A stretch of 64,000 bases of DNA from an uncultured Pelagibacteraceae bacterium (GCA_902518955.1 CABYIR010000002.1:48891-112890); one strand, 5' to 3'. Positions 4,662 through 36,621 are shown, numbered from the stretch's first letter. Program-made: numbers and translations. Notes: a model not told the origin generated them from the letters alone.

Positions 4662-4793
4662 TTATGAATAAAAAGTATTTTTCACATGAAGTAGGGCAGA
4701 ATCAGACCCATCAGTCGGAAACTCTAATGACCCTTTTTTACCACACGACAGTATAGTTGATATTAATAATGCAATTATTATGACTCTTGTCAT
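4662..4793 (-). CDS. small lipoprotein (LptM/YifL-like), 43 aa, absent from the ORF track
   Basis: My manual translation gives MTRVIIIALLISTILSCGKKGSLEFPTDGSDSALLHVKNTFYS*. Lipobox is ILS-C followed by GKKGSLEFP. The ATG overlaps the argH stop as ATGA, and the gene fills the argH-lysA gap where proteobacteria often carry such a micro-lipoprotein. Confidence 0.55.
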   Translation of the reverse strand: MTRVIIIALLISTILSCGKKGSLEFPTDGSDSALLHVKNTFYS

Positions 4794-6181
4794 TTTAATA
4801 TTTCTTTTTTAGCGAGCTTTATCATTTTTTTTACCTGTGATCTTGAGGTTCCTCCAAAGCTTTTTTTATTATCAACAGATGATTGTAAACTGATTGCATT
4901 ATACACCGTTTTGTTAATATTTTTGTCAAATTCTTGATAATCTGACAAATTTAATTTGTCTAGTTTTACTCCTTTTTTTTCAGCAAAGTTTACGATCTTT
5001 GCTGATAGGCCATGAGATTTTCTAAATGAGTAATTAAGATTTTTTACAAGCCAATCAGCTAATTCTGTAGCATTGGAGTAGCTTGATCTTAAAGCATTTT
5101 CCATATTTTTTTCATTAGTTTTAAGTCCCTTGATGACATCAATCATGCAATCAATAGACAGCTTTAAATTTGCACTTGTGCTTGTCAAAAGATTTTTATC
5201 TTCTTGTAAATCTTTTGAGTATGTAAGCGGTAGTCCTTTCATTACGTTTTGTATAGCAGATAAATTACTTATAATAATCGATGCTTTTGCTCTTACCAGT
5301 TCCATTGCGTCAGGATTTTTTTTCTGAGGCATAATAGATGAACTTGATAACATGTCATCTCCAAGATTAATAAAATTTATTAAATCTGATGACCATAAAA
5401 TAATTTCTTCTGCTAATCGTGACATGTGAATACTACATAGAGATGAAGAGAATATATAGTCCATCATAAAATCTCTATCTGAAACTGTATCAAGAGAATT
5501 TCTTGTTGGCTCTTTGAATTTCAGTAATTTTGTAGTTTGATATCTATTTATATCAAATGAAGTTCCAGCTAAAGCTCCTGCCCCAAGAGGATTCTGATCT
5601 AATCTTCTTTTTGATTGATTGAATCTTTCTAAGTCTCTTTTGAACATTTCATAATATGCCATTAAATGATGTGCAAAAGAAACTGGTTGGGCAGTTTGAA
5701 AATGTGTCATACCTGGAAATAAAGTATCTATATTATTTTCAGATTTCTTTATAATTATTTTTTGAAGCTTAATTATTTTACTTAAAATATTATCAATATC
5801 TTTTTTCATCCATAATTTTACATCAGTTACAACCTGATCATTTCTTGATCTAGCAGTATGTAACTTTCCAGCTACTTCTCCAATTAATTCCTCTAATCTA
5901 TTTTCAATATTCATATGAATATCTTCAAGGTCACTTTTAAAAGTAAATTTTCCTAATTCTATTTCAGATAATATTTTTTTTAGTCCAATAGAAATTTTTT
6001 TAAAATCTGACTTTGAAATAATTTTTTTAGACTCAAGCATTTTGGCATGAGCTATTGATCCCTCTATATCTTCACGGAAAAGAAACTTGTCTAGCTCAAC
6101 TGATGAATTTATTGACTTGAAAGCACCACTAGCTTCTTTTTTAAATCTTTTTCTTAATTTATTATTTTTTTTACTGGACAT
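4790..6181 (-). CDS. argH: argininosuccinate lyase
   Basis: Fumarate-lyase signature SSIMPQKKNPD. I trimmed the start to the ATG at 6181 (MSSKKNN...RKRF...). The 55 residues upstream in the track ORF are hydrophobic junk and overlap the divergent gene. Confidence 0.92.
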   Translation of the reverse strand: MSSKKNNKLRKRFKKEASGAFKSINSSVELDKFLFREDIEGSIAHAKMLESKKIISKSDFKKISIGLKKILSEIELGKFTFKSDLEDIHMNIENRLEELIGEVAGKLHTARSRNDQVVTDVKLWMKKDIDNILSKIIKLQKIIIKKSENNIDTLFPGMTHFQTAQPVSFAHHLMAYYEMFKRDLERFNQSKRRLDQNPLGAGALAGTSFDINRYQTTKLLKFKEPTRNSLDTVSDRDFMMDYIFSSSLCSIHMSRLAEEIILWSSDLINFINLGDDMLSSSSIMPQKKNPDAMELVRAKASIIISNLSAIQNVMKGLPLTYSKDLQEDKNLLTSTSANLKLSIDCMIDVIKGLKTNEKNMENALRSSYSNATELADWLVKNLNYSFRKSHGLSAKIVNFAEKKGVKLDKLNLSDYQEFDKNINKTVYNAISLQSSVDNKKSFGGTSRSQVKKMIKLAKKEILK

Positions 6182-6209
6182 TCTATTGTTATTAATTTTT
6201 ATGTACTTT

Positions 6210-6743
6210 ATGAAAGTTGTAATAAATAAATTTATTTTGCTGGTATATGCCACAATAATTCTAATTTGTAACCCCTTAAATATTAACTTTATTTTAGCAG
6301 CAGATTTTATTTTTGAGGAAAAAAGTGGGTTTTCAAGTGAATTCAAAAACGAAAATGATGATCTTTTTTCTTTAGATGATTTTAAAGAAAAGGTTCTATT
6401 AGTTAATTTATGGGCAACATGGTGTGAGCCCTGTAAAGAAGAAATGCCTTCTTTAGATAATCTTCAAACTCTTTTTAATAAAAATGAATTTACTGTTCTG
6501 CCAATAAATTTAGATCGAGGTCCAAAAAAGAAAGCTTTGAATTTTTTTGATGATTTCAACATTATAAATATAGAAACTTTTTTTGATGATAAGAATAATA
6601 TTCCTAGAGAAGTAAAAATCTTAGGATTACCTGTTACATTATTAATTAATAAAAAGGGCTTAGAGGTCGCAAGGTTAATTGGGCCAACTGAATGGACAGA
6701 TAAAAAGATATTAGAAATAATTCGAAAAGAAATATCTAATTAA
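6210..6743 (+). CDS. TlpA-like thiol:disulfide oxidoreductase (membrane-anchored or periplasmic thioredoxin fold)
   Basis: WATWCEPC active site with a signal/anchor sequence MKVVINKFILLVYATIILI. The start is either ATG 6210 or ATG 6201. The track start at 6087 lies inside argH. Confidence 0.8.
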   Translation: MKVVINKFILLVYATIILICNPLNINFILAADFIFEEKSGFSSEFKNENDDLFSLDDFKEKVLLVNLWATWCEPCKEEMPSLDNLQTLFNKNEFTVLPINLDRGPKKKALNFFDDFNIINIETFFDDKNNIPREVKILGLPVTLLINKKGLEVARLIGPTEWTDKKILEIIRKEISN

Positions 6744-7669
6744 ATCGCACCTTCAAGTTCTGGTAGAACCTGAAATAAGTCGGCAACTAGTCCATAGTCA
6801 GCAATATCAAAAATTGGAGCTTCTTCATCTTTATTTATTGCAACAATAACTTTAGAGTCTTTCATTCCAGCTAAATGTTGAATTGCTCCTGATATTCCAA
6901 CAGCAATATATAACTCTGGAGCGACTACTTTGCCAGTTTGTCCAACCTGGTAATCATTTGGTACAAATCCTGCGTCAACTGCAGCTCTTGAGGCTCCAAC
7001 AGCGGCACCCAATTTTGCGGCAACTTTATCTAATAGTTCAAAGTTCTCACCATTTTGCATACCTCTACCACCAGAAATTATTATTTTAGCAGACGTTAAT
7101 TCTGGTCTGTCTGATTTAGTTAATTCCTCACTAATATATTCAGAAATGTTAGGAATATTTTCAGGATTTATTTTCTCAACTTCACACCCTGTATCGCTAG
7201 TATCTGCTAATTTATATGCTGTTGGTCTGATTGTTAAAACTTTTTTTGCATCTGAACTTTGAACTGTAGCAATTGCATTTCCCGCGTAAATTGTTCTAAT
7301 AAATGTATCATTAGATTCAACTCCGATGATTTCAGATATCTGAGAAACATCAAGTTTTGCAGCTACTCTTGGCATAACATTTTTACCAGTGGTAGTTGCA
7401 GCAGCACAAAAATAATTGTAATTGTCTGAAATATTTACAATTGTAGACGTTAACTTTTCAGCAAGAATATTATTATATTCATCATTTTCGATATGTATGA
7501 TTTTTGATACACCAGATATTTTTGATGCTTGTTCCACAACAGAGTCAATTGCTGTACCAGCTACCATGCCGTGAACTTCTTCACCTAAATCTTTAGTAGC
7601 AGAAATCGCTTTTAAACTCTGATCACTGACTTTACCATTAGCATGTTCAATAAAAAATAATGTTGTCAT
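6740..7669 (-). CDS. etfA: electron transfer flavoprotein alpha subunit
   Basis: 309 aa with the C-terminal FAD-binding signature [19 protein letters not shown]. Confidence 0.92.
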
Positions 7670-8415
7670 ATAACCCCTGCTTCGTTTTTTAATTTTTCCA
7701 CTAATTCTGAAATATTTTCAACTTTGATTCCAGCCTGTCTTTTAGGTGGCTCGATGACTTTAAGTGTTTTAAGTCTAGGCGTGATATCGATGCCATAATC
7801 ATCTGGTGTTTTTTGATCTATCGGTTTCTTTTTAGCTTTCATTATATTTGGAAGCGAGGCATATCGTGGTTCATTTAGTCTTAAGTCAGTGGTAATTATT
7901 GCAGGCATATTCAGTTTAACTGTTTGTAATCCTCCATCTATTTCACGAGTGACTTGAATTTTATCACCATCAATTTCAATTTTAGATGCAAATGTACCTT
8001 GTGGCATATCTGTTAAAGCAGCTAGCATTTGACCAGTTTGATTATTGTCACCATCAATAGCTTGCTTGCCAGAAATTACTAATCCAGGTTTTTCTGCATC
8101 AATTATTTTAGATAATATTTTTGCAATCGATAATGGCTCAACTGTTTGATCAATTAGAACATGTATTCCTCGATCAGCTCCCATAGCCAGCGCAGTTCTT
8201 ATTGTTTCTTGGCATGATTGGTTTCCAACTGAAACAACAATAATTTCTTCAGCTTTACCAGCTTCTTTTAATCTAATAGCTTCTTCAACAGCAATTTCAC
8301 AGAATGGGTTCATTGACATCTTAACATTATCTGTTTCAACACCAGTATTATCAGATTTGACACGTATACTTACGTATGGATCAATAACTCTTTTTATAGG
8401 AACTAAAATTTTCAT
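7666..8415 (-). CDS. etfB: electron transfer flavoprotein beta subunit
   Basis: 249 aa with the typical N-terminus [13 protein letters not shown]. 4-nt overlap with etfA. Confidence 0.92.
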
Positions 8416-8457
8416 AGGATTACGGTTAATCTATTTTTATTAATATATCAATGTATT

Positions 8458-9021
8458 TTATGTATTCAAGCCAGGCTTCCACAAGATATCTTTTTTGCCA
8501 TAATTATTTTCAACTCTCGATAGAACAAAAAATAAATCTGATAATCTATTAATATATTGAAGAGCTGAGGGATTTACCTTTTCTTTAGCACTTAAACTAA
8601 CCATATTTGTTTCGGCTCTTCTAGCAACAGTTCGAGCATTGTGTAAATATGACGCACTCATAGTCCCACCTGGAAGTATGAAGGAAGATAATGGTTTAAG
8701 ATTCTTATTATATTCATCTATTTGTTTCTCAATTCTTTTTACTTGTTTCTCAGTAATTCTGAGAGGTTTAAATTTTGGCTTGGAGACAATTGGGGTCGCT
8801 AAATCAGCGCCAAGATCAAATAAGTCATTTTGTATTTCAGATATAACTTTGGCATTTTTTTTAGAGATAGCATGCCTAACAATACCTAAAATCGAATTTA
8901 ACTCATCGATTGATCCGTAAGATTTAATTCTAATATGATCTTTTGATACTCTTTTCCCAGATGCAAGACTTGTTTTTCCTTTATCACCAGTTTTAGTATA
9001 AATTTTTGTAAGTCTAACCAT
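8458..9021 (-). CDS. PduO-type ATP:cob(I)alamin adenosyltransferase
   Basis: 187 aa with the hallmark N-terminus IYTKTGDKGKTSL of PduO/MMAB-type adenosyltransferases. Confidence 0.88.
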   Translation of the reverse strand: MVRLTKIYTKTGDKGKTSLASGKRVSKDHIRIKSYGSIDELNSILGIVRHAISKKNAKVISEIQNDLFDLGADLATPIVSKPKFKPLRITEKQVKRIEKQIDEYNKNLKPLSSFILPGGTMSASYLHNARTVARRAETNMVSLSAKEKVNPSALQYINRLSDLFFVLSRVENNYGKKDILWKPGLNT

Positions 9022-9023
9022 AA

Positions 9024-9224
9024 TTATCTTGATGCCAAATAGACAGCCAACATAATAATCAATATTGCAACAAATTGTAACAATATTCTAAGTCGCATAA
9101 GTTTGTTTGAATACTTTCTATTAAATTCCCCTCCCCTCGTCATGCTATAAATTCCAGTAGCTAGAACTAAAACTACCGCCGCAACAGATATAGGAATTAA
9201 GATATAATAAAAGACAGGGGACAT
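9024..9224 (-). CDS. twin-transmembrane-helix small protein (HIG1-domain-like)
   Basis: 66 aa. Two hydrophobic helices are separated by a loop, with an RLRILLQ (RxRx3Q-like) motif. 2-3 nt gaps to both neighbouring genes. Confidence 0.6.
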   Translation of the reverse strand: MSPVFYYILIPISVAAVVLVLATGIYSMTRGGEFNRKYSNKLMRLRILLQFVAILIIMLAVYLASR

Positions 9225-9227
9225 TTA

Positions 9228-10874
9228 CTAGTTTGAAGTAAGAAGTCGTCTAGCAATAACCTCGGCCTGCATTTCTGCGGCACCTTCAAAAATGTTAAGG
9301 ATTCTTGAATCACAAAGAAGTCTACTGATAGGATATTCCAAAGCAAATCCATTTCCACCATGAATTTGAAGTGAATTATCAGAGCAAGCCCAAGCTACTC
9401 TCGCCCCAAGTAATTTGGCCATACCAGCTTCAACGTCACAGCGGTTACCTGTATCTTTCTCACGAGCAGAATAATATGTTAACTGACGAGCAGCCATTAT
9501 TTCAGTAACCATTGAAACAATTTTTGATGAAACTCTCGGAAATTCATATATGGATTTTCCAAACTGATTTCTGTCTAAAGCATATTTTAATCCAGTTTCC
9601 ATGGATGACTGAGCAACTCCAACAGCTCTAGCGGCAGTTTGAATTCTAGCTGACTCAAAGGTTTCCATTAATTGTTTAAAGCCTTTTCCCTCTTCACCAC
9701 CTAGAAGATTTTCTTTTTTCACTTTAAAGTCATCAAAAGCAATTTCATATTCCTTCATCCCACGGTAACCTAAAACTTCGATTTCACCACCGGACATACC
9801 TTCTGAAGGAAACATATTGTCGTCATCTCCTCTTTCTTTCTCAGCCAAAAACATTGATAGTCCTTTGTAGCCTTTTTCTTCTGGATTAGTTCTTGCTAGC
9901 ATTGTCATTAGGTCACTTCTTGCACCATGGGTAATCCAAGTCTTATTTCCAGTTATAGAATAATGGGTACCATTTGCAGTAGCACGTGTTTTTAACGACG
10001 CTAAGTCAGAGCCTGTATTTGGTTCAGTAAATACTGCCGTGGGTAATATTTCACCTGAAGCAATCTTTGGAAGCCACTTTTGTTTTTGTTCCTCTGTACC
10101 ACCAATAAGAAGTAGTTCTGAAGAAATATCAGTACGGGTTCCAAGTGAACCAATGCCAATATAACCTCTAGCAAGTTCTTCAGTAACAATGCACATTGCA
10201 AGCTTACTCATTCCTAGTCCACCATATTCTTCAGGTATAGTTAGTCCAAAAATTCCAAGTTCAGACATTTTATCTATCACAGACATAGGTATTAACTCAT
10301 CCTTTAAGTGCCATTCATGAGCGTAGGGAGTTACATATTCTTCTACAAATTTATTAAATTGATCTCTAATCATTGAAGAAGTTTCATCTATTCCTAAACT
10401 TCCAAAATTATTACTTGATACACTCTCACGAATTATATTCGCAAGTTCTAATCTATCTTTAGATTCATTTCCATTTAAAATGAGATCATTAAAACTATTA
10501 TTATCAATTTCATTAAATAGTCCATTTTTTAGACTAAGATCTTTTGGGCGTATGACCTCTAGCTGAGACATAGGTATACCTGTTTTAATTTGGCACAAAT
10601 ATTCTGAAAAAATTATTTGTAATATTAATTTTTCATACTCAGTAAAACGATTTTCAGACTCAAGATTTATTGCCCAGTTAAGCATTTCTCGAAGTGTCTC
10701 TTTGTAGGTTGCAATCCAGGCTAAACCATGAGCAGCATGCTGTTCTTGATTTAGATGATCCTTTGAAACCTTTCCGTCGACAAGAACAAGTTTACTAACT
10801 TGTTCTTTAGCTACATTATAATATGCATCAACAGTTTGCTGAGCTTCTTGACACTTGGTAATTATATTATCCAT
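9228..10874 (-). CDS. mcd: long-form acyl-CoA dehydrogenase, probable (2S)-methylsuccinyl-CoA dehydrogenase
   Basis: 548 aa. An ACAD fold is preceded by an N-terminal extension of about 170 aa, as in characterised Mcd. It starts 1 nt after the ccr stop and is co-located with etfBA. Confidence 0.7.
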   Translation of the reverse strand: MDNIITKCQEAQQTVDAYYNVAKEQVSKLVLVDGKVSKDHLNQEQHAAHGLAWIATYKETLREMLNWAINLESENRFTEYEKLILQIIFSEYLCQIKTGIPMSQLEVIRPKDLSLKNGLFNEIDNNSFNDLILNGNESKDRLELANIIRESVSSNNFGSLGIDETSSMIRDQFNKFVEEYVTPYAHEWHLKDELIPMSVIDKMSELGIFGLTIPEEYGGLGMSKLAMCIVTEELARGYIGIGSLGTRTDISSELLLIGGTEEQKQKWLPKIASGEILPTAVFTEPNTGSDLASLKTRATANGTHYSITGNKTWITHGARSDLMTMLARTNPEEKGYKGLSMFLAEKERGDDDNMFPSEGMSGGEIEVLGYRGMKEYEIAFDDFKVKKENLLGGEEGKGFKQLMETFESARIQTAARAVGVAQSSMETGLKYALDRNQFGKSIYEFPRVSSKIVSMVTEIMAARQLTYYSAREKDTGNRCDVEAGMAKLLGARVAWACSDNSLQIHGGNGFALEYPISRLLCDSRILNIFEGAAEMQAEVIARRLLTSN

Positions 10875-10875
10875 A

Positions 10876-12111
10876 TTAGTTAAGTGATTTTAAACCTTCT
10901 TTTGCAGCACCAACTAAAACAGCCATATTGCCAGCTTTATGTTCGTTATTCATCATTTTTTCATGCGCATCAGGAATACCATCCCAACTAAACACCTCAG
11001 AAACACATGGATCAATTACTCCATCACTTACAAGCTGGTTTGCTGCACTAGCCTGTTTTGAATTACCAAAATGAGACCCTTGTAGTCTTTTACTATGCAT
11101 CCATAAGTATCTAGCATCTAATGTTAGATTGTAACCAGTTGTTCCAGCACAAATCACAACCATTCCACCTCTTTTAACAACAAACATTGAAACTGGAACA
11201 GTTGACTCTCCTGGGTGTTCAAAAACCATATCAACGTTTTTGCCTTTACCAGTAAATTCCCATAATGCTTTTCCAAACTTTCTTACCTCTTTCATGTAAT
11301 TGTTGTAAGCATCTTCGTCATCAATATCCGGATGTTCTCCCCAACAGTCAAAATCCTTTCTATTTAAAACTCCAACTGCACCAAGTTTTTTTACATAGTC
11401 AGCTTTGGAATTATCAGAAATGACACCAATAGGCTTGGCACCAACAGTTTTTGCTAATTGAACAGCAAAACTACCTAGTCCACCGGACGCACCCCAAACT
11501 AAAACATACTCACCAGGCTTTAATTCATTTCCTGAATGACCAAATAGCATTCTGTAGGCTGTAACTAGTGTTAAATTATAACAACCACTTTCTTCCCAAG
11601 TAAGTTGTGAGGGCTTTTTCATTAATTGATGAGCTTGAACGGAGGTAAATTGAGCAAAAGTACCATCAGCGGTTTCATATCCAAAAACTTTATTTGTTTC
11701 AGACAACATAGGCTCTCCACCGTTTACTTCGACATCTTCATGATCCCAAGTCATTGCATGAATTACAACTTCATCACCGACTTTCCATCTCTTAACATCT
11801 GATCCTACTTTCCAAACAATTCCAGAAGCATCAGATCCAGCAATATGGTAATCTTTCTTTGTAACGTCTAGGACAGATATTGGTTTACCAAGACCAGCCC
11901 AAACACCATTATAGTTGACACCAGCTGCCATTACAAAAACGAGAACTTCACTCGGACCAATTTCCGGAATATCGAATTCTTCCTCAACAAAAGATTGAAG
12001 AGGATTACCGTGCCTGTCTTTTCTTATGACCCATGCATGCATTTTTTTTGGAACATGTCCTAATGGTGGTATTTCACCAATCGCGTAAATATCTTTTTCT
12101 TCTGTCGTCAT
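10876..12111 (-). CDS. ccr: crotonyl-CoA carboxylase/reductase
   Basis: 411 aa. N-terminal GEIPPLGHVPKKMHAW and HIAGSDASGIVW resemble Ccr. The NADPH site is GASGGLGSFAVQLAK. It is divergent from ecm. Confidence 0.85.
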   Translation of the reverse strand: MTTEEKDIYAIGEIPPLGHVPKKMHAWVIRKDRHGNPLQSFVEEEFDIPEIGPSEVLVFVMAAGVNYNGVWAGLGKPISVLDVTKKDYHIAGSDASGIVWKVGSDVKRWKVGDEVVIHAMTWDHEDVEVNGGEPMLSETNKVFGYETADGTFAQFTSVQAHQLMKKPSQLTWEESGCYNLTLVTAYRMLFGHSGNELKPGEYVLVWGASGGLGSFAVQLAKTVGAKPIGVISDNSKADYVKKLGAVGVLNRKDFDCWGEHPDIDDEDAYNNYMKEVRKFGKALWEFTGKGKNVDMVFEHPGESTVPVSMFVVKRGGMVVICAGTTGYNLTLDARYLWMHSKRLQGSHFGNSKQASAANQLVSDGVIDPCVSEVFSWDGIPDAHEKMMNNEHKAGNMAVLVGAAKEGLKSLN

Positions 12112-12246
12112 ATTTTCTCCTACGTAGTATGAAGCTATATAGCTCTAAATTAGGCTTTTGCGAGGTTTATAGCCAAATAAATGAGATTAGTATATACATT
12201 TTAATTAAAACAAATTAATAAAAATTAACATTTTTTATAGGAATCT

Positions 12247-14202
12247 ATGGATAAACCTTGGTTAATCAGAACTTATGCAGGTCATTCTACTGCCAAAAAG
12301 TCAAACGAACTGTACCTGAAAAATCTTTCAAAAGGTCAAACAGGCTTATCAATCGCTTTTGATTTGCCTACTCAAACTGGGTACGACAGTGACCATATTT
12401 TGGCATCTGGAGAGGTTGGTAAAGTAGGCGTTCCTATTAGTCACATTGGAGATATGAGAGTCTTATTTGATAAGATTCCTCTTGATCAAATGAATACCTC
12501 TATGACTATAAATGCAACTGCTGCATGGTTGTTAAGTCTATATATTGCTCTGGCAGATGAGCAAGGTATTGAACGCAGTAAACTTCAAGGAACAACACAA
12601 AATGATATAATTAAAGAGTATCTATCAAGAGGTACTCATGTATTTCCTCCTGCTCCGAGTCTTCGATTAATTTCAGATATGATTACCTATACTTATAAAG
12701 AACTCCCTAAATGGAATCCTGTTAATATTTGTTCTTATCATTTGCAGGAAGTAGGAGCAAAACCTGTACAAGAGCTAGCTTTTGCTCTGAGCACTGCTGT
12801 TGCTTATTTGGATCGTGTAAAAGAAGCAGATGTCTTAAGTTCAGATGAATTTGAAAACGTCGTGGGTCGAATAAGTTTTTTTGTTAATTCAGGTATCAAA
12901 TTCATTACAGAAATGTGTAAGATGAGGGCTTTTGTAGATCTCTGGGATGAAATTACAAAAGAGAGATATGGTGTACAAAATCCAAAGAACAGAAGGTTTA
13001 GATATGGTGTTCAAGTTAATAGCTTAGGCTTGACTGAGCAACAGCCTGAAAATAATGTTTATAGAATACTTATTGAGATGATGGCAGTAGTGCTATCAAA
13101 AGATGCTAGAGCTCGGGCTGTTCAGCTTCCAGCATGGAATGAGGCTTTAGGATTACCACGTCCATGGGACCAACAGTGGTCATTAAGACTACAACAGATA
13201 CTTGCTTTTGAAACTGACCTATTAGAGTTCGAAGATTTATTTAATGGATCGAAAGTAATTGATGAAAAAGTTTTTGAAATGAAATCTGAAGCAAAAAAAG
13301 AATTTGATTACATCCAATCAATTGGAGGTGCTGTTGTTGGTATTGAAAATAGTTATTTAAAACAGCAACTTGTAAATTCAAATAAAGAAAGAATTCAAAA
13401 TATTAACGATGGTAAGCAGGTCGTTGTAGGAGTAAACAAGTTTACTGAAACAGAATCATCACCATTAACTGCAAATGATAGTGGAATAGAAACAATTGAT
13501 TCTTCAGTTGAAGCAGAGCAAATTAAATCTCTAAACGAATGGAGAGATGCAAGAGATAGTAATGCAGTTAAAGAAGCTTTACTAAAATTAAAAGAATCTG
13601 CAGAAACAGATCAAAATATTATGGAGGCTTCAATAAATGCAGCTAAAGTTGGAGTTACGACTGGTGAATGGACCGATGCACTTAGAGGTATTTATGGTGA
13701 GTTTAGAGCTCCAACAGGAATAAATCAGAATATAAAAACAGTCACTAATGGCGATTATTCTTCAATTATTAAGAGAGTAGACACTATCTCAAAGAAAATT
13801 GGAAGACGTATTAAGTTTCTAGTTGGAAAACCGGGTCTTGATGGTCATTCTAGTGGAGCTGAGCAAATAGCCGTAAGCGCTAGTGACTGTGGAATGGATG
13901 TACTATACGAAGGAATTCGATTAACTCCGGAACAAATTGTAAAATCATCGGTTGAAGAGGATGTCCATATTATTGGTTTATCTATATTATCTGGCTCACA
14001 TATTCAACTTGTTGCAGAAATAATGAAGGAACTTAAAAAGAATAACATAAATAATATTCCTGTTATTGTAGGAGGTATCATTCCTGTTGAAGATGAGAAA
14101 ATACTTTTACAGAATGGAGTTAAGGCGGTTTATACTCCAAAAAATTATCAGATGTCTGATATTATGAGTGATATAGTTTCAATAGTGGAAAAAGAATTAT
14201 AA
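12247..14202 (+). CDS. ecm: ethylmalonyl-CoA mutase (AdoCbl-dependent)
   Basis: 651 aa. N-terminus is KPWLIRTYAGHSTAKKSNELY...GLSIAFDLPTQTGYDSDH. The C-terminal B12 domain carries DxHxxG (LDGHSSG). The single-chain size matches Ecm, and it is adjacent to ccr. Confidence 0.85.
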   Translation: MDKPWLIRTYAGHSTAKKSNELYLKNLSKGQTGLSIAFDLPTQTGYDSDHILASGEVGKVGVPISHIGDMRVLFDKIPLDQMNTSMTINATAAWLLSLYIALADEQGIERSKLQGTTQNDIIKEYLSRGTHVFPPAPSLRLISDMITYTYKELPKWNPVNICSYHLQEVGAKPVQELAFALSTAVAYLDRVKEADVLSSDEFENVVGRISFFVNSGIKFITEMCKMRAFVDLWDEITKERYGVQNPKNRRFRYGVQVNSLGLTEQQPENNVYRILIEMMAVVLSKDARARAVQLPAWNEALGLPRPWDQQWSLRLQQILAFETDLLEFEDLFNGSKVIDEKVFEMKSEAKKEFDYIQSIGGAVVGIENSYLKQQLVNSNKERIQNINDGKQVVVGVNKFTETESSPLTANDSGIETIDSSVEAEQIKSLNEWRDARDSNAVKEALLKLKESAETDQNIMEASINAAKVGVTTGEWTDALRGIYGEFRAPTGINQNIKTVTNGDYSSIIKRVDTISKKIGRRIKFLVGKPGLDGHSSGAEQIAVSASDCGMDVLYEGIRLTPEQIVKSSVEEDVHIIGLSILSGSHIQLVAEIMKELKKNNINNIPVIVGGIIPVEDEKILLQNGVKAVYTPKNYQMSDIMSDIVSIVEKEL

Positions 14203-14204
14203 GT

Positions 14205-14864
14205 ATGATTGCTATTGATGGACCATCTATTCATCCATTGAGTGGAGGCAAAGCAAAACAATTGGTCATTTTTTGTCATGGATATGGTGCAGATGGTAAT
14301 GATCTTATTGGTCTCGCAAGTTACTTTCAGCAAATCTTACCAGATGCGTATTTTATTTCACCAAATGCACCAGAGTCATGTCCAATGAACCCAATGGGCT
14401 ATCAATGGTTTGATTTTACTTCTAATGATCCTGATTTAATTTGGAAAAAAGTGAATGTTGCTGGAGAAATTCTAAATAATTTTATTGATACTAAATTAAA
14501 TGAACTAAATTTATCAGACAAAGATTTATCGTTAGTCGGCTTCAGTCAAGGTACTATGATGTCACTTCATGTTGGTTTAAGGCGTATTGCAACTATGAGT
14601 TCTATTGTTGGCTTTTCTGGTAGATTGATTAGAGAAGATATTTTATCAGACGAAATGAAATCAAAACCACCAGTATACTTAATTCACGGCGACCAAGATC
14701 CAATGGTTCCTTATAGTGATACAATCAATGCTGCTAAAATACTGAAAGATTTAGATATTGATGTTCAATCACATATTTCTCCTAATACCCCTCATTCAAT
14801 TGCACAGGATGGATTAGAAATTGCTAAAAAGTTTCTATCATCAAACTTTTCACAGAATAAATAA
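14205..14864 (+). CDS. phospholipase/carboxylesterase family (acyl-protein-thioesterase-like alpha/beta hydrolase)
   Basis: 219 aa with the GFSQGTMM nucleophile elbow and the downstream HGDQDP and PHS elements of the catalytic triad. Starts 2 nt after the ecm stop. Confidence 0.8.
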   Translation: MIAIDGPSIHPLSGGKAKQLVIFCHGYGADGNDLIGLASYFQQILPDAYFISPNAPESCPMNPMGYQWFDFTSNDPDLIWKKVNVAGEILNNFIDTKLNELNLSDKDLSLVGFSQGTMMSLHVGLRRIATMSSIVGFSGRLIREDILSDEMKSKPPVYLIHGDQDPMVPYSDTINAAKILKDLDIDVQSHISPNTPHSIAQDGLEIAKKFLSSNFSQNK

Positions 14865-14916
14865 TTTATAAATATTTAATTTTGATTTTTCTGGGTTGAT
14901 ACATATATTAAGATAT

Positions 14917-15474
14917 ATGAATTCATTTATGCCTCTAGAACAGTGTCCAGCATTGGTTTTGAATTCAGATTTTCGTCCTCTTTCACATTATCCGCTCTCA
15001 TTGTGGTCATGGCAAGATAGTATAAAAGCTGTAATACTTGATCGAGTTAATATTGTCGCTAATTATTCAAGACAAATTAGAAGCCCGAGTTTTGAGATAT
15101 ATGTACCAAGTGTAATAAGTTTAAAAAATTACATAAAACCCAACCGTAATCCAATATTTTCAAGATTTAATGTTTTTTTGAGAGATAAATTTCAATGCCA
15201 ATACTGTGGGTCTAATAAGGATTTAACATTTGATCATTTGATTCCAAGATCAAATGGCGGAGAAACAACTTGGGAAAATATTGTTACTGCTTGCTCTTCT
15301 TGTAATGTCAAGAAGGGTGGCAAAAGCTTATCTAAATCAGGCATGAAACCATATAATTTGCCGAAGATACCTTCTATGAGTGATTTAGATAAATGTGGCA
15401 GATCTTTTCCTCCCAACTTCTTACATGAAAGTTGGATGGATTTTTTATATTGGGATATTCAATTAGATAAGTGA
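14917..15474 (+). CDS. HNH endonuclease family protein
   Basis: CQYCG...FDHLIPRSNGGETTWENIVTACSSCNVKKG. I prefer the ATG at 14917 over the TTG at 14896 used by the track. Confidence 0.8.
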   Translation: MNSFMPLEQCPALVLNSDFRPLSHYPLSLWSWQDSIKAVILDRVNIVANYSRQIRSPSFEIYVPSVISLKNYIKPNRNPIFSRFNVFLRDKFQCQYCGSNKDLTFDHLIPRSNGGETTWENIVTACSSCNVKKGGKSLSKSGMKPYNLPKIPSMSDLDKCGRSFPPNFLHESWMDFLYWDIQLDK

Positions 15475-29521: not shown

Positions 29522-31681
29522 ATGAATAAAAAAAATAATAAAGATGATCAATTAACTGAGTGGAAGAAGAAATTTGAGGCTGAAACTAAGACTTCAAGAG
29601 CCGATAATTTTATAATCAACACTGATGAAGACATTGGAATCAAGCCTTTATATATAGAGGAAGATATAAAAGATCTTAACTTTGTTGATGTAGGATCCTT
29701 ACCAGGTCACGATCCTTATACAAGAGGACCTAAAGCGTCAATGTATGTAAATAGGCCATGGACGATAAGACAGTACGCAGGTTTCTCGACCGCTGAAGAG
29801 TCAAACAATTTTTATCGTAAAAATTTAGAAGCAGGGCAGAAGGGTTTGTCAGTTGCTTTTGATCTACCAACTCATAGAGGTTATGACTCAGATGATGAAA
29901 TTGTAATGGGAGATGTTGGTAAAGCTGGAGTAGCTATTGACTCAGTTGAAGATATGAAGATTTTATTCGATGGAATACCACTAGATCAAATGTCAGTTTC
30001 AATGACTATGAATGGTGCAGTGTTACCAATTCTTGCATCATTCATTGTAGCAGGTGAGGAACAAGGGGTTGCTGTCAAAGATTTATCAGGAACAATTCAA
30101 AACGATATTTTAAAAGAATTTATGGTAAGGAATACTTACATTTATCCTCCAGATCCATCAATGAGAATCGTTGCTGATATAATTGAATATACTTCTAGAG
30201 AAATGCCCAAATTTAATTCTATTTCAATATCAGGTTATCATATGCAAGAGGCTGGGGCAGATAATGTTCTTGAACTAGCATACACACTCGCTGATGGGAT
30301 AGAGTATGTTAGAGCAGCTTTGTCCAAAGGACTAGATATTGATGATTTTGCTCCAAGACTCTCATTTTTCTTTGCAATAGGAACAGATTTCTTTATGGAA
30401 ATTGCAAAACTTAGAGCTGCTAGAACTCTATGGTATAAAATTATGAAAGATTTTGGTGCCAAAAATGAGAAATCGTTAACACTAAGAACACATTGTCAGA
30501 CCTCAGGCGTTTCGCTTACAGAAAAAGATCCATATAATAATATTGTTCGAACTTCCTATGAGGCTTTGTCTGCGGTTCTTGGAGGTACGCAGAGCCTTCA
30601 TACAAACTCATTTGATGAAGCGATAGCGCTACCTACAGAATTTTCAGCGAGGATTGCTAGAAATACTCAATTAATTTTACAGAATGAAACTGGAGTCTCA
30701 AATACAGTAGACCCCCTTGCTGGTTCATATTTTATTGAGAAAATAACAGATGAAGTTGCGTCAAAAGCATGGGAAATAATTCAAGAAGTGGAGGAGCTTG
30801 GAGGCATGACAAAAGCAGTGAATGCAGGTATCCCAAAATTAAAAATTGAAGAGTCAGCAACTAAAAAACAAGCAAAAATTGACTCTGGTGATAGGGTGGT
30901 TGTAGGTGTAAATAAATTTCAAAACCCAAAAGAGCCCAAGATAGATGTATTAGTAATTGATAATGAAAAGGTTCGTGAAGACCAAATTAAAAAGATAAAC
31001 TTACTTAAGGGCTCTAGAGATAATAAAAAACTTGAGAAATCTCTTAATGAATTGACTGAAGATGCTAAGAATGGAAATAACCTTTTATATTCTGCAGTAA
31101 AAGCAATAAAAAATAGGGCTACGATTGGTGAAGTTTCAAAAGCATTAGAAAATGTTTTTGGTCGTCATTATGCAACTTCAGTTGGCGTATCGGGTGTATA
31201 TGGAAAGTATTTTGAGGGGAATGAAGAATTTATGCATGTAACAAAAAAAATTCAAGATTTTGAAAAATTATATGGAAGAAGACCCAGAGTATTAGTAGTA
31301 AAAATGGGACAAGATGGGCATGATAGAGGTGCAAAAATTGTCGCAACATCATTTGCAGACATTGGATTTGATATCGATATGGGTCCATTATTCCAATCGC
31401 CAAAAGATGTAGCAAAGGACGCTGTCGAAAATGATGTACACGCAATTGGTGTATCCACACTAGCTGCAGGCCATAAGACATTGGTTCCAGAGCTAATGAG
31501 TTCATTAAAAGAATTAGATCCTGAAAATAAAATCATTGTTTTTGTTGGAGGAATCATTCCCGAGCAAGATTATGACTTTTTGTATGAAAAAAATATTTCT
31601 GCAATTTTTGGCCCCGGATCAAATATTATTGAATCTGCAGAAAAAGTAATTGATCTAATATCTGATAAAAATAATCAATAA
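29522..31681 (+). CDS. mcm: methylmalonyl-CoA mutase, single-chain large form
   Basis: 719 aa with [18 protein letters not shown] and [17 protein letters not shown]. The C-terminal B12 domain carries DxHxxG (QDGHDRG). Confidence 0.92.
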
Positions 31682-31683
31682 TT

Positions 31684-32646
31684 ATGGAATTAGTCAAAAA
31701 GGTTTTAAATAATGATCGTGCCTCGATAGCTAAAGCTATAACATTAGTAGAGTCATCCAATCCAAAGGATAAAGATGAGAGCAAGGAACTTATTTCAAGC
31801 TTAATTAATCATCCAGGCCATTCTATTCGTGTGGGTTTTTCTGGACCTCCTGGTGTTGGTAAATCAACTTTTATTGAATCTTTTGGTACATATTTGGTCA
31901 ATAAAAATTATAAACTCGCAATATTAGCAATAGATCCTTCATCAAACCTCACAGGAGGATCTATCCTGGGCGACAAGACTCGTATGAGTGAAATATCAAA
32001 AAGTCAGAATACATTCATACGCTCAACACCATCAAAAGGATCACTTGGAGGTGTATCTTATGGTACACGAGAAGCATCTATTATACTTGACGCTGCAGGA
32101 TATGATTTTATTTTCATCGAGACGGTTGGCGTTGGACAATCTGAAACTATGGCAGCAAACTTAGTTGATATTTTTACACTCATTGTTGGACCAGGATCTG
32201 GTGATGAATTGCAAGGAATTAAAAAAGGAATAACAGAATATGCCGATATCTTTATTGTTAATAAAAATGATGGAGACTTAAAATTGCAAGCATCAAAAAC
32301 TGCATCAGATTATAAATCAGCTTTAAGCTTTTACTCTAAACAAGATAACCAAGCAGCTAAGGAAGTTTTACTAGTATCTTCAATTGAACAACAGGGAATG
32401 GACAGTGTTATTGATACAATAAATGAAATTATTAAGTTTAATAAGTTGAATAAAATTTTTGATGCAAGAAGAGAAAACCAATTAAGTTATTGGATTAAGG
32501 AAGAGATCAGAAATCAAATTCAGTCTAAACTTGACCTTGAGGTAGGTAATGATACTGAATTACTTGATATGACAAAGGCTGTTATCAAAGGAGAGATCAA
32601 TATATATGATGTCTCAGATCATTTCCTAGATAAATTTTTGAAATAG
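31684..32646 (+). CDS. meaB: methylmalonyl-CoA mutase-associated GTPase
   Basis: 320 aa with P-loop GPPGVGKST and NKxD (VNKNDGD). Starts 2 nt after mcm. Confidence 0.9.
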   Translation: MELVKKVLNNDRASIAKAITLVESSNPKDKDESKELISSLINHPGHSIRVGFSGPPGVGKSTFIESFGTYLVNKNYKLAILAIDPSSNLTGGSILGDKTRMSEISKSQNTFIRSTPSKGSLGGVSYGTREASIILDAAGYDFIFIETVGVGQSETMAANLVDIFTLIVGPGSGDELQGIKKGITEYADIFIVNKNDGDLKLQASKTASDYKSALSFYSKQDNQAAKEVLLVSSIEQQGMDSVIDTINEIIKFNKLNKIFDARRENQLSYWIKEEIRNQIQSKLDLEVGNDTELLDMTKAVIKGEINIYDVSDHFLDKFLK

Positions 32647-32693: not shown

Positions 32694-32981
32694 ATGACGA
32701 GAGCGTGTGATTTAACAGGAAAAAAAGTACAATTTGGCCATAACGTGAGTAAAGCCAACAACAAGACTAAGCGTAAATTTATTCCAAATATTCAATCAGT
32801 CACTTTTAAAAGTGAGATTTTAAATCAAAATCTTAAGCTAAATGTTGCCGCTTCCTCAGTTAGAACTGTAAGTAAGTACGGAGGCATTGACGAGTTTTTA
32901 ATTAGAACAAAATGCAATGAACTTTCTCCTAAAGCTAAAAAATATCAGAAAGTTATTAAGAAACTTTCAGTAAAAAACTAG
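32694..32981 (+). CDS. rpmB: 50S ribosomal protein L28
   Basis: 95 aa. [29 protein letters not shown] is the typical L28 N-terminus. Confidence 0.92.
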
Positions 32982-34813
32982 TTCATAGTTCTTCTTTTCT
33001 TTTTTTCATCCTCTTCAAATAAATCAACTAGTTGTTCTGTCATAACGTCAGCAAGTTGCTCTGCATCAACAATAGTTACAGCTCTTTTATAATATCTTGT
33101 AACATCGTGACCTATTCCTACTGCCAATAATTGAATATTTGATCTACTTTCAATCCAATTTATTACACCTCTAAGATGCTTCTCAAGATAATTTCCTGAA
33201 TTCACTGACAATGTACTATCATCAACTGGAGCTCCATCAGAGATAACCATTAAAATTTTTCTTGCTTCATACCTAGACTGAAGTCTTTTATGTGCCCATA
33301 ACAAAGCTTCCCCATCAATATTTTCTTTTAGGAGACCTTCACGCATCATTAATCCAAGATTCTTTTTTGCTCTCCTCCAAGGCTCATCAGCTGCTTTATA
33401 AATTATATGCCTTAAATCATTAAGTCTTCCTGGAGCAGGTGGCTTATTATTTTGCATCCAATGTTCTCTACTTTTTCCACCTTTCCAAGCTTTAGTGGTA
33501 AATCCAAGAATTTCAACTTTCACTCCACATCTCTCAAGTGTTCGAGCAAGGATATCAGCACTCATAGCTGCAACAGTAATCGGTCTACCTCTCATTGAAC
33601 CTGAGTTATCAATTAGAAGTGAAACAACGGTGTCCTTAAAATCGGTATCTTTTTCTTTTTTAAATGAAAGAGAATACATTGGATCCATTATAACTCTTGT
33701 TAATCTTGATGTGTCTAATAAGCCCTCTTCGAGATCAAAATTCCAACTTCTATTCTGTTTAGCTAGGAGTTTTCTTTGTAATCTATTTGCGAGTCTTGAA
33801 ATTATTGTTTGAAATGATTTTAGTTGCTGATCGAGATAGTTTCTAAGTCTATTTAACTCTTCATCTTCGCATAGAATATTAGCAGTTATAATCTCATCAA
33901 ATTCTTCTGAATATTTTTGATAATCATTGAATATCTCCTCATAACTTAAGTTATTTTTATATTGTGGAGTTGTATTTTCTGAATTTCCATCATCACTATC
34001 AGATAAATCTTGATCATCATCTTTATCAAATGAAACTTCTGTTTCCTCAAGACTTACCTCTTGTTCACTCTCTGCTGATTCATCTTGATCAAAAGATGAT
34101 TGGTTCTCCATCTCATTAGTTTCATTATTCTCTAATTGATCAATATTATTATTTTTTTCATCCTCATTATTAGATTCACTCTTTTCATCTTTTTGATCAT
34201 AATAATTTAATTCTTCGATAACTTGATTAACTGCTTTAGCGAATTCAACTTGATTATCAATAGAGTCGATAAGCTTTTTCGAAGAATCGCCAATTTTTTT
34301 TTCAAACCACTGATGCCACATTGAAATAGCTTTATTTTGTGAATTTGGTATGAAATTTTTTCCAGCTAATTTTCTCAAATAAAAATCAAGTGCGTTCTGA
34401 ATATCAATATCAGACTGTTCGTTAGCTTCAAACATCTGATTTTCATTACATTTTTTTTCATATAAAGAAAACAAGTTTGACTTAACACCTCTCATGATCT
34501 TACTTCCAAGAATTTGAATCCGAGTATTCTCAAGAACCTCATATATTTCTTTATTTTTATGTCCTGAGGGCGACATCAACTCGAAAGTTTCTTTGTCATG
34601 AAATCGATACATCAATGCCTGATTATCTGCATTGCCTCTTATTGAAGATAGGAACTCAAGATCATTTTCGTTATCAATTTTTGGTAGAACGATAGTATTT
34701 TCTGATTTGAAAGCGTTATCATCAAATACTACTTCAATATCTTTGTTATTAGCGATTGCTTTTACAGTAGAAGTAATTGCTTTTTTGAACTCTGTAATGA
34801 GGTCTTCTTTCAC
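32978..34813 (-). CDS. cobT: CobT-like vWA-domain protein (annotated family: cobaltochelatase subunit CobT)
   Basis: 611 aa. A central acidic low-complexity insert is followed by a C-terminal vWA domain with [14 protein letters not shown]. Confidence 0.8.
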
Positions 34814-35802
34814 TACTTTAAATTAGTTAATGATGATGTATTTCCTACTTCTTCTCCAAAACACCTCTGATAATATTCAGAAATTATTGGTTTTTCACTC
34901 TCATCACATTTATTAAGGAAAGTAAGTTGGAAGCTTAAGTTATAATCGAAATTAAATATTTCAGAATTTTCAGCCCAAGTTAAAACTGTTCTAGGACTCA
35001 TTACTGTAGATATATCACCATTAGCCAATCCTTTTCTTGTTAGATCAGCAACCCTGATCATCAAATCTAATATTTCAGATTTTTCCTTCTCAGCAAATGC
35101 TGGAACTTTACTTTCAATAATTATTTTTTCTTTCTCAAGTTCTAAATAATTAAGAGTTGTTACAATATTCCATCGGTCCATTTGCCCTTGATTTATCTGT
35201 TGAGTTCCATGATATAATCCGGTCGTATCTCCTAATCCAATCGTATTGGTTGTGGCAAATAATCTAAAATGAGGATTCGGACGAATGACAGTATTTTTAT
35301 CAAGAAGTGTAAATTTACCATCAGTTTCTAATACTCTTTGAATAACAAACATTACATCTGGTCTTCCAGCATCATATTCATCAAAAACTAATGCAGTAGG
35401 ATTTTGGAGTGACCAAGGTAATATTCCATTTTGAAATTCAGTAATCTGTTTTCCATCCTTAAGAACAATTGCATCTTTCCCAATAAGATCAATTCGACTT
35501 ACATGACTATCAAGATTGATCCTAATACAGGGCCAATTCAATCGTGCTGCTACTTGTTCAATATGAGTTGATTTTCCTGTTCCATGCAGACCCTGGATCA
35601 TTACTCTCCGATTATATTTGAAACCTGCAAGAATCGCCATCGTAGTAGACTTATCAAAACAATAATTACTATCAATATCTGGAACATGCTCAGTTTTTTC
35701 TGAGAAACCATCGACATGAAGATCAGTGTCTATTCCAAAAGCTTGATTAACAGAGATTGAAATATCTGGTTTACTCGTTAATTGGTCATTTAAATTGTTC
35801 AT
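34813..35802 (-). CDS. cobS: CobS-like AAA+ (MoxR-class) ATPase
   Basis: 329 aa. Walker A is [40 protein letters not shown], which closely resembles CobS. 1-nt overlap with cobT. Confidence 0.85.
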
Positions 35803-36310
35803 AGTATTCCTTTAGTAATTTATAAGACTCAAGAACTTTCGTAAGTTTCTCAGTTTTACTCTTGTCATTGCCAACAGTATCTGGATGAAGTTCTTTTACA
35901 ATTTTTTTAAAACTTGATTTAATCTCCTCAATTGAAGCATTTTTATTATCTATTCCAAGTACCGCAAGAGCGTTTAAATACTTAGAGCTATACAAATTAG
36001 GGTTTAGATTATTTTTATCAACACCTAAATAGGATGAATTCAAAGAATCCATGATTTTTTCAACTTTTTCAGCATAATCAACACTGTATGTACCCATTTT
36101 CTTTGTTTTACGATGGCCAATGATGTCATTTTCAATGAATTCTTCTATTTGATCTGCAGACATATTTGAAAAATAATTCCATTTTTTGTTATATTCTTTT
36201 ATATGTTCATAACAAAACCAAATGTAGGTGTTTAATTCATCTGGTGATAATGGAGCTTTATATTCAGCATTGTTCTCACATCCATCTATATAACACTGAT
36301 TTTTTTTCAT
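35786..36310 (-). CDS. J-domain protein with Cys/His-rich N-terminus
   Basis: 174 aa. C-terminal J domain with HPD (KELHPDTVG). The N-terminus is CYIDGCEN...FCYEHIKEYNKKWNYF. 17-nt overlap with cobS. Confidence 0.75.
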   Translation of the reverse strand: MKKNQCYIDGCENNAEYKAPLSPDELNTYIWFCYEHIKEYNKKWNYFSNMSADQIEEFIENDIIGHRKTKKMGTYSVDYAEKVEKIMDSLNSSYLGVDKNNLNPNLYSSKYLNALAVLGIDNKNASIEEIKSSFKKIVKELHPDTVGNDKSKTEKLTKVLESYKLLKEYYEQFK

Positions 36311-36345
36311 TCTTATGATAATCTTAGTATAAATATTTATATCAA

Positions 36346-36621
36346 ATGAATATCAAAGAAACTATTAATTCAAAAATAAATATACAACTAAATACCCATT
36401 TTCTAAAAATTATTGATTTTTCGGAACAACATAAAAATCATTATGACAATGGCTCGAGAGGAGATACTTCCCACATTACTCTCATAATAGTTTCAAAAGA
36501 TTTTCAAAATATGAATAAGATTCAAAGAGAAAGAAAAATCCATAAAATACTTGAAAATGAAATTCGTGATAACTTACATTCAATTAGACTTAAACTTTAT
36601 ACTCCAGATGAGTATGATTAA
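36346..36621 (+). CDS. bolA: BolA family protein
   Basis: 91 aa of BolA-like size, with conserved H residues and the F..M..I.R.R.I...L pattern. Confidence 0.8.
   Translation: MNIKETINSKINIQLNTHFLKIIDFSEQHKNHYDNGSRGDTSHITLIIVSKDFQNMNKIQRERKIHKILENEIRDNLHSIRLKLYTPDEYD

Follow-up and report, generated by a model that had tools for sequence, protein, structure and literature searches.

The ethylmalonyl-CoA (EMC) pathway has been described in large-genome generalists. C. (Rhodobacter) sphaeroides, P. denitrificans and M. extorquens possess the same set of enzymes, namely crotonyl-CoA carboxylase/reductase (Ccr), ethylmalonyl-CoA mutase (Ecm/MeaA), methylsuccinyl-CoA dehydrogenase (Mcd), malyl-CoA/beta-methylmalyl-CoA lyase (Mcl1) and methylmalonyl-CoA mutase (Mcm, here MCM). 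The genes are arranged in various ways. In Ruegeria TM1040 ccr and meaA are divergent, and in most Rhodobacterales loci retrieved mcd was found alone. Streptomyces reportedly carries a ccr-meaA-mcl-mch-mcd operon, in which the EMC genes are clustered as pathway enzymes only, without genes for an electron transfer flavoprotein (ETF), an ATP:cob(I)alamin adenosyltransferase (ATR) or a HIG1-like protein as neighbours. Here, we analyzed a stretch of 64,000 nt from an uncultured Pelagibacteraceae bacterium (GCA_902518955.1 CABYIR010000002.1:48891-112890; 31.2% GC, approximately 95% coding), referred to as the window throughout. Its host belongs to a streamlined pelagic lineage with about 31% GC, in contrast to the generalists named above, while the same enzyme set and the divergent ccr/meaA arrangement of Ruegeria were observed. 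In the window mcd directly follows ccr and abuts the genes for a HIG1-like protein, a PduO-type ATR and both ETF subunits. Unlike in the Streptomyces cluster, mcl1 is at a distance of 28 kb, and the window yielded no mch.

With a probability of roughly 0.8, the locus encodes genuine EMC core enzymes, with the trio mcd-ccr<>ecm (<>, divergent) placed in one slot of an ancestral backbone of the order dsbB-HNH-...-HIG1-PduO-EtfB-EtfA-(Hbd)-TlpA-ArgH-LysA. In the proposed pathway, Ccr would convert crotonyl-CoA to ethylmalonyl-CoA by reductive carboxylation, the adenosylcobalamin (AdoCbl)-dependent Ecm/MeaA would rearrange the latter to methylsuccinyl-CoA, and Mcd would oxidize methylsuccinyl-CoA to mesaconyl-CoA and pass the electrons to a group I ETF. 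Mcl1, MCM and the chaperone MeaB, encoded elsewhere in the 64 kb, would serve the later steps, and the PduO-type ATR would be the source of AdoCbl for both mutases. Most likely, the EMC pathway is functional, with the PduO enzyme providing AdoCbl and the ETF reoxidizing Mcd.

Identity of the EMC enzymes and their partners

The ccr gene (10876-12111, minus strand) encodes a protein of 411 aa, which was found above the cutoff of the TIGR01751 equivalog model (569.7 versus 378.55 bits) and matched M. extorquens Ccr (PDB 4gi2) over residues 2-410 with 625 bits. The CO2 pocket of the K. setae enzyme (KsCcr) is formed by the tetrad N81, F170, E171 and H365, and a KsCcr F170Y variant is fully carboxylating (PMC6628652). 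We mapped the KsCcr numbering onto the window by motif context, via alignment to 4gi2 and to S. collinus 3hzz. The corresponding residues are N68 (VNYNGVW), Y145-E146 (GYET) and H347 (QGSHF); they are the same in 4gi2 and align with GFET/GSHF of 3hzz. A tyrosine at the position of KsCcr Phe170 is common to the window protein and M. extorquens Ccr. Judged from its sequence, the reductase is a carboxylating Ccr which has kept its CO2-binding residues.

Directly downstream, mcd (9228-10874, minus strand) encodes a long-form acyl-CoA dehydrogenase (ACAD) of 548 aa. It matched (2S)-methylsuccinyl-CoA dehydrogenase of P. denitrificans (PDB 6es9) over residues 9-545 with 730.6 bits and 62.9% identity. 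The roles of individual Mcd residues have been described (PMC5798300). An N-terminal extension of about 170 aa, which mimics the dimer-dimer interface of ACADs and separates Mcd from ordinary ACADs, is present in the window protein: the match spans the approximately 160 aa of the extension, with 57 of 151 extension positions identical. The arginine triad binding the carboxylate (R252, R376 and R421 in 6es9) is conserved as R247, R371 and R416, the methyl pocket A285/F287 as A280/F282, and the catalytic E535 as E530. Furthermore, E380, S248, T418, W318, T320 and E117 of the beta-hairpin (6es9 numbering) were kept, which leaves the peripheral S283 as the sole change among the specificity residues. 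On these residues and the extension, the long ACAD is assigned as Mcd.

The third gene of the trio, ecm/meaA (12247-14202, plus strand), encodes 651 aa with the MCM fold and the B12-binding domain (PF01642, PF02310). At 561 bits the protein stayed under the MCM equivalog cutoff of 876, and it shares only 36% identity with the window's own MCM and with P. shermanii MutB. Its identity to the mutases adjoining ccr at 12 other loci is 61-86%, and in a neighbour-joining tree it formed a joint clade with these apart from MCM. Among named homologues, 64% identity was found for 'protein meaA' of Ruegeria TM1040, whose divergent neighbour is ccrA, 63.8% for P. denitrificans, 61.5% for Methylobacterium and, by tblastn, 61% for Streptomyces replicons. 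For near-identical environmental proteins, NCBI uses the name 'protein meaA' and JGI '(2R)-ethylmalonyl-CoA mutase'. The mutase retains the carboxylate-binding Y89/R207 (MutB Tyr89 and Arg207), Y243 and H244, as well as the DxHxxG B12 motif (D608/H610/G613). At the positions of MutB Tyr89/Arg207, isobutyryl-CoA mutase (ICM) has Phe/Gln and hydroxyisobutyryl-CoA mutase (HCM) Ile/Asp. Both of these types are excluded because Tyr89/Arg207 and DxHxxG are kept in the window protein, and residues and clade place the mutase with MeaA/Ecm and separate it from MCM, ICM and HCM.

The bona fide MCM (719 aa) is encoded by mcm at 29522-31681 on the plus strand. With 1201 bits it clearly passed the NF006944 equivalog cutoff of 876, and with P. 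shermanii MutB it shares 61% identity. Starting 2 nt behind it on the same strand, meaB (31684-32646) encodes the MCM-associated G-protein chaperone of 320 aa (NF006958, 370 bits versus a cutoff of 329). Thus, mcm and meaB (29522-32646) lie 15 kb from ecm and add a second AdoCbl-dependent enzyme. The gene mcl1 (42340-43317, plus strand, 325 aa) is positioned 28 kb from the trio directly upstream of accA. The deduced L-malyl-CoA/beta-methylmalyl-CoA lyase matched the M. extorquens malyl-CoA/beta-methylmalyl-CoA lyase (PDB 5ugr) with 417.7 bits over residues 1-319 and the R. sphaeroides malyl-CoA lyase (4l9y) with 349 bits; members of its cluster are named 'malyl-CoA/(S)-citramalyl-CoA lyase' by JGI. 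In total, six EMC-related functions (ccr, ecm, mcd, mcl1, mcm, meaB) were identified inside the 64 kb.

Could the enzymes nevertheless be mis-assigned, i.e. be a non-carboxylating enoyl-CoA reductase, a paralogue of MCM, ICM or HCM, and a long ACAD other than Mcd? The best matches of the mutase among solved structures were MCMs, and neither an Ecm structure nor an Ecm-specific NCBIfam model was matched. However, Ccr exceeds the equivalog cutoff with an intact CO2 pocket, the Mcd specificity residues are conserved apart from S283, and the mutase differs widely from MCMs while the true MCM sits in the same window; it also retains Tyr89/Arg207 and clusters with ccr-linked MeaA. We regard such a mis-assignment as extremely improbable.

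The remaining genes of the minus-strand group encode the presumed partners. EtfB (7666-8415, 249 aa, PF01012) and EtfA (6740-7669, 309 aa, PF01012 and PF00766) are the beta and alpha subunits of an ETF. EtfB matched the P. denitrificans protein 1efp_B with 323.5 and human 1efv_B with 310.9 bits, compared with at most 94 bits for bifurcating-type ETFs. For EtfA the values were 364 bits (human 1efv_A), 329 bits (P. denitrificans 1efp_A) and at most 173 bits (bifurcating type). By these scores, the ETF is classified as a group I (housekeeping) ETF, nearest to the ACAD-partner ETFs of Paracoccus and human and not to the bifurcating or FixAB types. The PduO-type ATR (8458-9021, 187 aa) was recognized by TIGR00636 (205.7 bits versus a cutoff of 108.45) and PF01923 (216 bits); its nearest solved structures are the ATR of M. 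tuberculosis (2g2d/6wgs, 156 bits) and human MMAB (2idx, 99.7 bits). The HIG1-like protein of 66 aa (9024-9224) belongs to the alphaproteobacterial 'twin transmembrane helix small protein' family (NF033233, 76.6 bits versus a cutoff of 49; PF04588 HIG_1_N, 52.8 bits).

All gene calls of the original prediction (ccr, mcd, the HIG1-like gene, the PduO-type ATR, etfB, etfA and ecm) are correct according to the profile, structure and residue evidence. Of the points it had named as decisive, those on the reductase, the long ACAD and the mutase were settled in the same direction: the TIGR01751 assignment and the CO2 pocket identify the reductase as the carboxylating type and not an enoyl-CoA reductase, N-terminal extension and active site place the long ACAD in the Mcd group, and the Tyr/Arg pair together with the clade shared with MeaA/Ecm separates the mutase from the isobutyryl- and hydroxybutyryl-CoA types. 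The lyase gene mcl1 of the window was not listed in it. Its proposal of an EMC pathway with a demand for B12 is strengthened by Mcl1, MCM and MeaB of the window.

Gene order, spacing and the alphaproteobacterial backbone

Coordinates, strands and gaps of the six minus-strand open reading frames (ORFs) and the divergent mutase gene, including the 135-nt spacer, were reproduced exactly from our ORF list. The gaps from ccr via mcd, HIG1 and pduO to etfB are 1, 3, 2 and 42 nt, and etfB and etfA overlap by 4 nt. Co-directional orientation and short gaps make ccr-mcd-hig1-pduO-etfBA compatible with a single operon, but the same spacing is the background of the window. Over its 39 same-strand junctions the median gap is 2 nt and overlaps are frequent, and spacing of 1-3 nt is therefore uninformative. 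A scan of the window for promoter-like and terminator-like sites yielded counts at the level of shuffled sequence and is for this reason silent on operon structure.

The genes around the trio were found in the same order in genomes without it. The S. meliloti genome has the order dsbB, HNH, ..., twin-TM, ATR, (rhomboid), etfB, etfA, hbd, TlpA, argH, lysA, on strands equal to those of the window read in reverse, and the block contains neither ccr nor mcd nor ecm. Rhizobium sp. NLR16a and Azospirillum sp. B510 have the central HIG1-ATR-etfBA part without EMC genes, and Sphingomonas retains HNH-...-HIG1-ATR. For Sinorhizobium, Rhizobium and Azospirillum, order and strands of HNH, HIG1, pduO, etfB, etfA, tlpA, argH and lysA are equal to those of the window, with 48-70% protein identity from hig1 through etfA. 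Differences concern hbd, present in these backbone genomes, and a rhomboid protease gene, present in the Rhizobiaceae; both are missing in the window. The slot between HNH and HIG1, occupied by est-ecm<>ccr-mcd in the window, holds unrelated genes (3-methyladenine glycosylase, gluQRS, YihY, SDR) in these genomes, four of them in Rhizobiaceae. Because HIG1-PduO-EtfBA-TlpA-ArgH-LysA occurs without ccr, mcd and ecm, the EMC trio occupies one slot of an ancestral alphaproteobacterial backbone.

The full block including the trio was detected in eleven close relatives, in MarineAlpha6_Bin2, in a soil Alphaproteobacteria metagenome-assembled genome and in a Rhodovibrionaceae genome; Kiloniella carries it in rearranged and Devosiaceae in looser form. 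MarineAlpha6_Bin2, the soil genome, Rhodovibrionaceae, Kiloniella litopenaei and Devosiaceae share ecm<>ccr-mcd-hig1-pduO-etfB-etfA(-tlpA) with the window, with protein identities of 52-68%, or 46-51% in the case of the short hig1. These loci of other lineages have longer spacers, some inserted genes and, in Kiloniella, an inversion, whereas the window and its eleven close relatives are the most compact. The HIG1-ATR-etfBA adjacency is common to Rhizobiaceae, Azospirillaceae, Kiloniella, Rhodovibrionaceae, Devosiaceae and the Pelagibacterales-like lineage, with or without EMC genes nearby, and the HIG1-like gene directly precedes pduO in S. meliloti, Rhizobium, Azospirillum and Sphingomonas. 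The adjacency of ATR and ETF genes to the EMC trio is old and was repeatedly retained, but it did not arise by recruitment of the former to the trio.

A different view of the same arrangement would be a purpose-built super-operon, with selection keeping ccr-mcd-HIG1-pduO-etfBA as one co-regulated transcript. The six genes on one strand, with gaps of at most 42 nt and no terminator-like hairpin between them, agree with this, as does the position of the trio directly beside HIG1-pduO-etfBA in at least five divergent lineages. Moreover, Mcd requires ETF and Ecm requires AdoCbl (PMC5798300). These points are countered by the intact HIG1-pduO-etfBA-tlpA-argH-lysA block where no EMC genes adjoin, by the solitary mcd of most Rhodobacterales and by the tight spacing, which is the norm of this genome. 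ETF and ATR are also partners of many other enzymes, MCM at a distance of 15 kb among them, and the 42-nt gap between pduO and etfB marks the spot where another gene is inserted elsewhere (the rhomboid protease in Sinorhizobium and Rhizobium). Overall, we consider the super-operon possible but doubtful and prefer the trio as one slot of the backbone. Of the packing of pathway enzymes, redox partner and cofactor-maturation enzyme seen in the original prediction, the adjacency holds; a dedicated ETF/ATR package does not, since the block occurs without EMC genes and short gaps are the norm. The proximity of enzymes, ETF and ATR is real, and the genes may be co-expressed.

The divergent spacer between ccr and ecm (12112-12246, 135 nt) was aligned for the window and five relatives with coding identities of 71-100%. 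Two elements became visible: GGTTTATAGCC at 12164-12174, whose core is invariant across the aligned relatives, and the conserved AT-rich stretch GATTAGTATATACATTTTAA at 12185-12204. Both were kept across relatives with proteins only 71-89% identical. A near-palindromic variant of the first element, GGCTTATAGCC, is duplicated in one relative (L007). The elements GGTTTATAGCC and GATTAGTATATACATTTTAA may serve ccr and ecm jointly as a promoter or regulator site. No Rfam family matched in the spacer, and Rfam gave only three tRNAs in the whole window; a known cobalamin riboswitch or another RNA in this place was therefore rejected.

Behind ecm, the plus-strand genes est (14205-14864, Abhydrolase_2 esterase) and HNH endonuclease (14896-15474), both identified by Pfam matches, are backbone genes flanking the trio and are not counted among the pathway genes. 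The order coq7-hnh-est next to ecm is conserved in relatives, and the HNH gene takes an equal backbone position in S. meliloti, Rhizobium and Sphingomonas. A role of the esterase as pathway thioesterase was ruled out, because it moves with the coq7-HNH backbone also at a locus without adjacent ecm (L022). The HNH endonuclease has weak similarity to IscB/Cas9d HNH domains; it is a fixed backbone gene and not a mobile element, and in the metagenome contig L004 it is truncated and uncalled (12650-13024). At the other end, the stop of etfA overlaps that of the convergent tlpA-like gene by 4 nt (6740-6743). The argH ORF (4790-6346, 518 aa) and the TlpA-like ORF (6087-6743, 218 aa), both with TTG starts, overlap by 260 nt. 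In relatives argH is called at 463 aa and the TlpA-like gene at 177-185 aa; from these shorter calls, the true starts are probably near 6181 (argH) and at about 6190-6210 (TlpA-like). Two further ORFs, 39591-41366 (591 aa) and 920-1675 (251 aa), matched neither Pfam nor NCBIfam models at the thresholds applied.

The conserved ATR-etfBA adjacency also touches on the chemistry of the ATR. We know of no reductant of ATR-bound cob(II)alamin that was ever identified for PduO/MMAB-type enzymes, including those of mitochondria. Mitochondria too contain MMAB, ETF and HIGD proteins. From the adjacency, ETF might be the physiological donor of the one electron by which ATR-bound cob(II)alamin becomes cob(I)alamin; we regard this as quite improbable. 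On a plasmid of the gammaproteobacterial Marinobacter sp. M3C (locus L091, 1-4570) a PduO-type ATR is accompanied by a MeaB-like gene, a CoA transferase and an MCM-family mutase in split form. Here, mutase and ATR are genuinely packaged together, and neighbours of the HIG1 and ETF type are missing.

Completeness and role of the pathway

Several observations weigh against the reading as genuine EMC core enzymes in a backbone slot. The genes mch, epi, pccAB, phaAB/croR and mcl2 were not found within the 64-kb window, and as this is the only part of the genome read, completeness of the pathway is unproven. Likewise, aceA and glcB do not lie in the window. The mutase tree was calculated without the biochemically characterized Ecm of R. 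sphaeroides and M. extorquens AM1, and the basis of the Ecm call is its orthology to MeaA proteins linked to ccr, those of P. denitrificans and Methylobacterium among them, together with names assigned by third parties. Finally, the trio adjoins the ATR-ETF block in several orders, and selection on this linkage, instead of common descent alone, could be the cause.

The missing genes also bear on a further alternative, in which Ccr, Ecm and Mcd are real but do not mainly serve C2 assimilation, but belong to a route that is incomplete or of another kind. Such a route might, for example, consume C4/C5 acyl-CoAs derived from 3-hydroxybutyrate, from fatty acids or from C5-dicarboxylates, balance redox by oxidizing NADPH under consumption of CO2, or deliver glyoxylate and propionyl-CoA beside a glyoxylate shunt. 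Besides the lack of mch, epi, pccAB and phaAB in the window, a gene for a long-chain acyl-CoA synthetase at a distance of 5 kb fits such a route. So does the absence of hbd (3-hydroxybutyryl-CoA dehydrogenase), which is next after etfA in Sinorhizobium, Rhizobium and Azospirillum and missing from this position in the window; this absence bears on the supply of crotonyl-CoA to the pathway. On the other side, Ccr, Ecm, Mcd, Mcl1, MCM and MeaB are the signature set of a complete EMC pathway, and six large genes are unlikely to be kept for a partial route in a streamlined genome of about 1.3-1.4 Mb, as judged from the assembly sizes of relatives. The genes not found are small or of a common type and could be located anywhere in the part of the genome that was not read. 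A partial or alternative route is therefore regarded as unlikely, and the EMC pathway itself is the preferred reading.

The use of B12 is well supported by two AdoCbl mutases, MeaB and the ATR. For the living cell, we infer flux through the pathway, co-transcription of its genes, assimilation of C2 units and auxotrophy for B12. Homologues of CobT and CobS (32978-36621) were found just under their equivalog cutoffs (754.6 versus 759.05 and 556.4 versus 558.55 bits), with a DnaJ-domain protein, BolA and ribosomal protein L28 encoded in their neighbourhood. Further cobalamin-biosynthesis genes were not found in the window, and for this reason the two homologues are no evidence of B12 synthesis.

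Host lineage and probable B12 demand

Proteins 95-100% identical to those of the locus, in the same gene order, were found on hundreds of marine contigs (Tara and others). NCBI labels the host and the near-identical proteins as Pelagibacteraceae or Pelagibacterales bacterium. A search with ribosomal protein L20 returned no names other than 'Pelagibacteraceae/Pelagibacterales bacterium' before Hyphomicrobiales appeared at about 72%. The same locus was observed in the four GORG single-amplified genomes AG-911-E02, AG-893-M03, AG-426-I21 and AG-891-J04, with 71-88% identity over the core from ecm to etfA; for the housekeeping genes of the locus, identity between the window and these four is no more than 47-60%. 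They are classified by GTDB as o__Pelagibacterales; f__AG-422-B15, with assemblies of 1.24-1.35 Mb (PMC10308929). The assembly of AG-891-J04 is 97.6% complete. From these nearest classified relatives, we infer that the host belongs to the family AG-422-B15 or near it. HIMB59/AEGEAN-169 was rejected as host lineage, because the four related genomes are missing from the HIMB59 genome table (PMC10734472) and are classed as f__AG-422-B15 (PMC10308929). The HIMB59/AEGEAN-169 clade is reported in the literature to be without a glyoxylate shunt.

Precedents in other Alphaproteobacteria exist for the enzymes, for the divergent ccr/ecm pair and for the block as a whole, and public pipelines already name the genes correctly. 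The family AG-422-B15 may correspond to 'subgroup IV' of SAR11. According to the 2025 SAR11 taxonomy paper, this subgroup is little studied and probably shares no common ancestry with SAR11 proper. In the searchable open literature, nothing was found that joins the EMC pathway with Pelagibacterales, SAR11, HIMB59 or AEGEAN-169. The link between a pelagic lineage and the EMC pathway appears to be new in that it is unreported there. Its value lies in filling an ecological gap and not in new biology. The synteny result is, in addition, a caution against inferring functional "packaging" from adjacency in tightly packed genomes.

To our knowledge, canonical SAR11 has no B12-dependent enzymes. The glyoxylate shunt has been described in the literature as a hallmark of canonical SAR11. 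On a more speculative view, an AG-422-B15-like pelagic lineage would replace this SAR11-type shunt with a B12-dependent EMC pathway. An abundant streamlined relative with two AdoCbl mutases, MeaB, an ATR and the EMC core points to a different strategy of carbon assimilation. Dependence on the vitamin would tie the lineage to B12 producers and, if true, the AG-422-B15-like lineage would be an unrecognized B12 sink in oligotrophic oceans.

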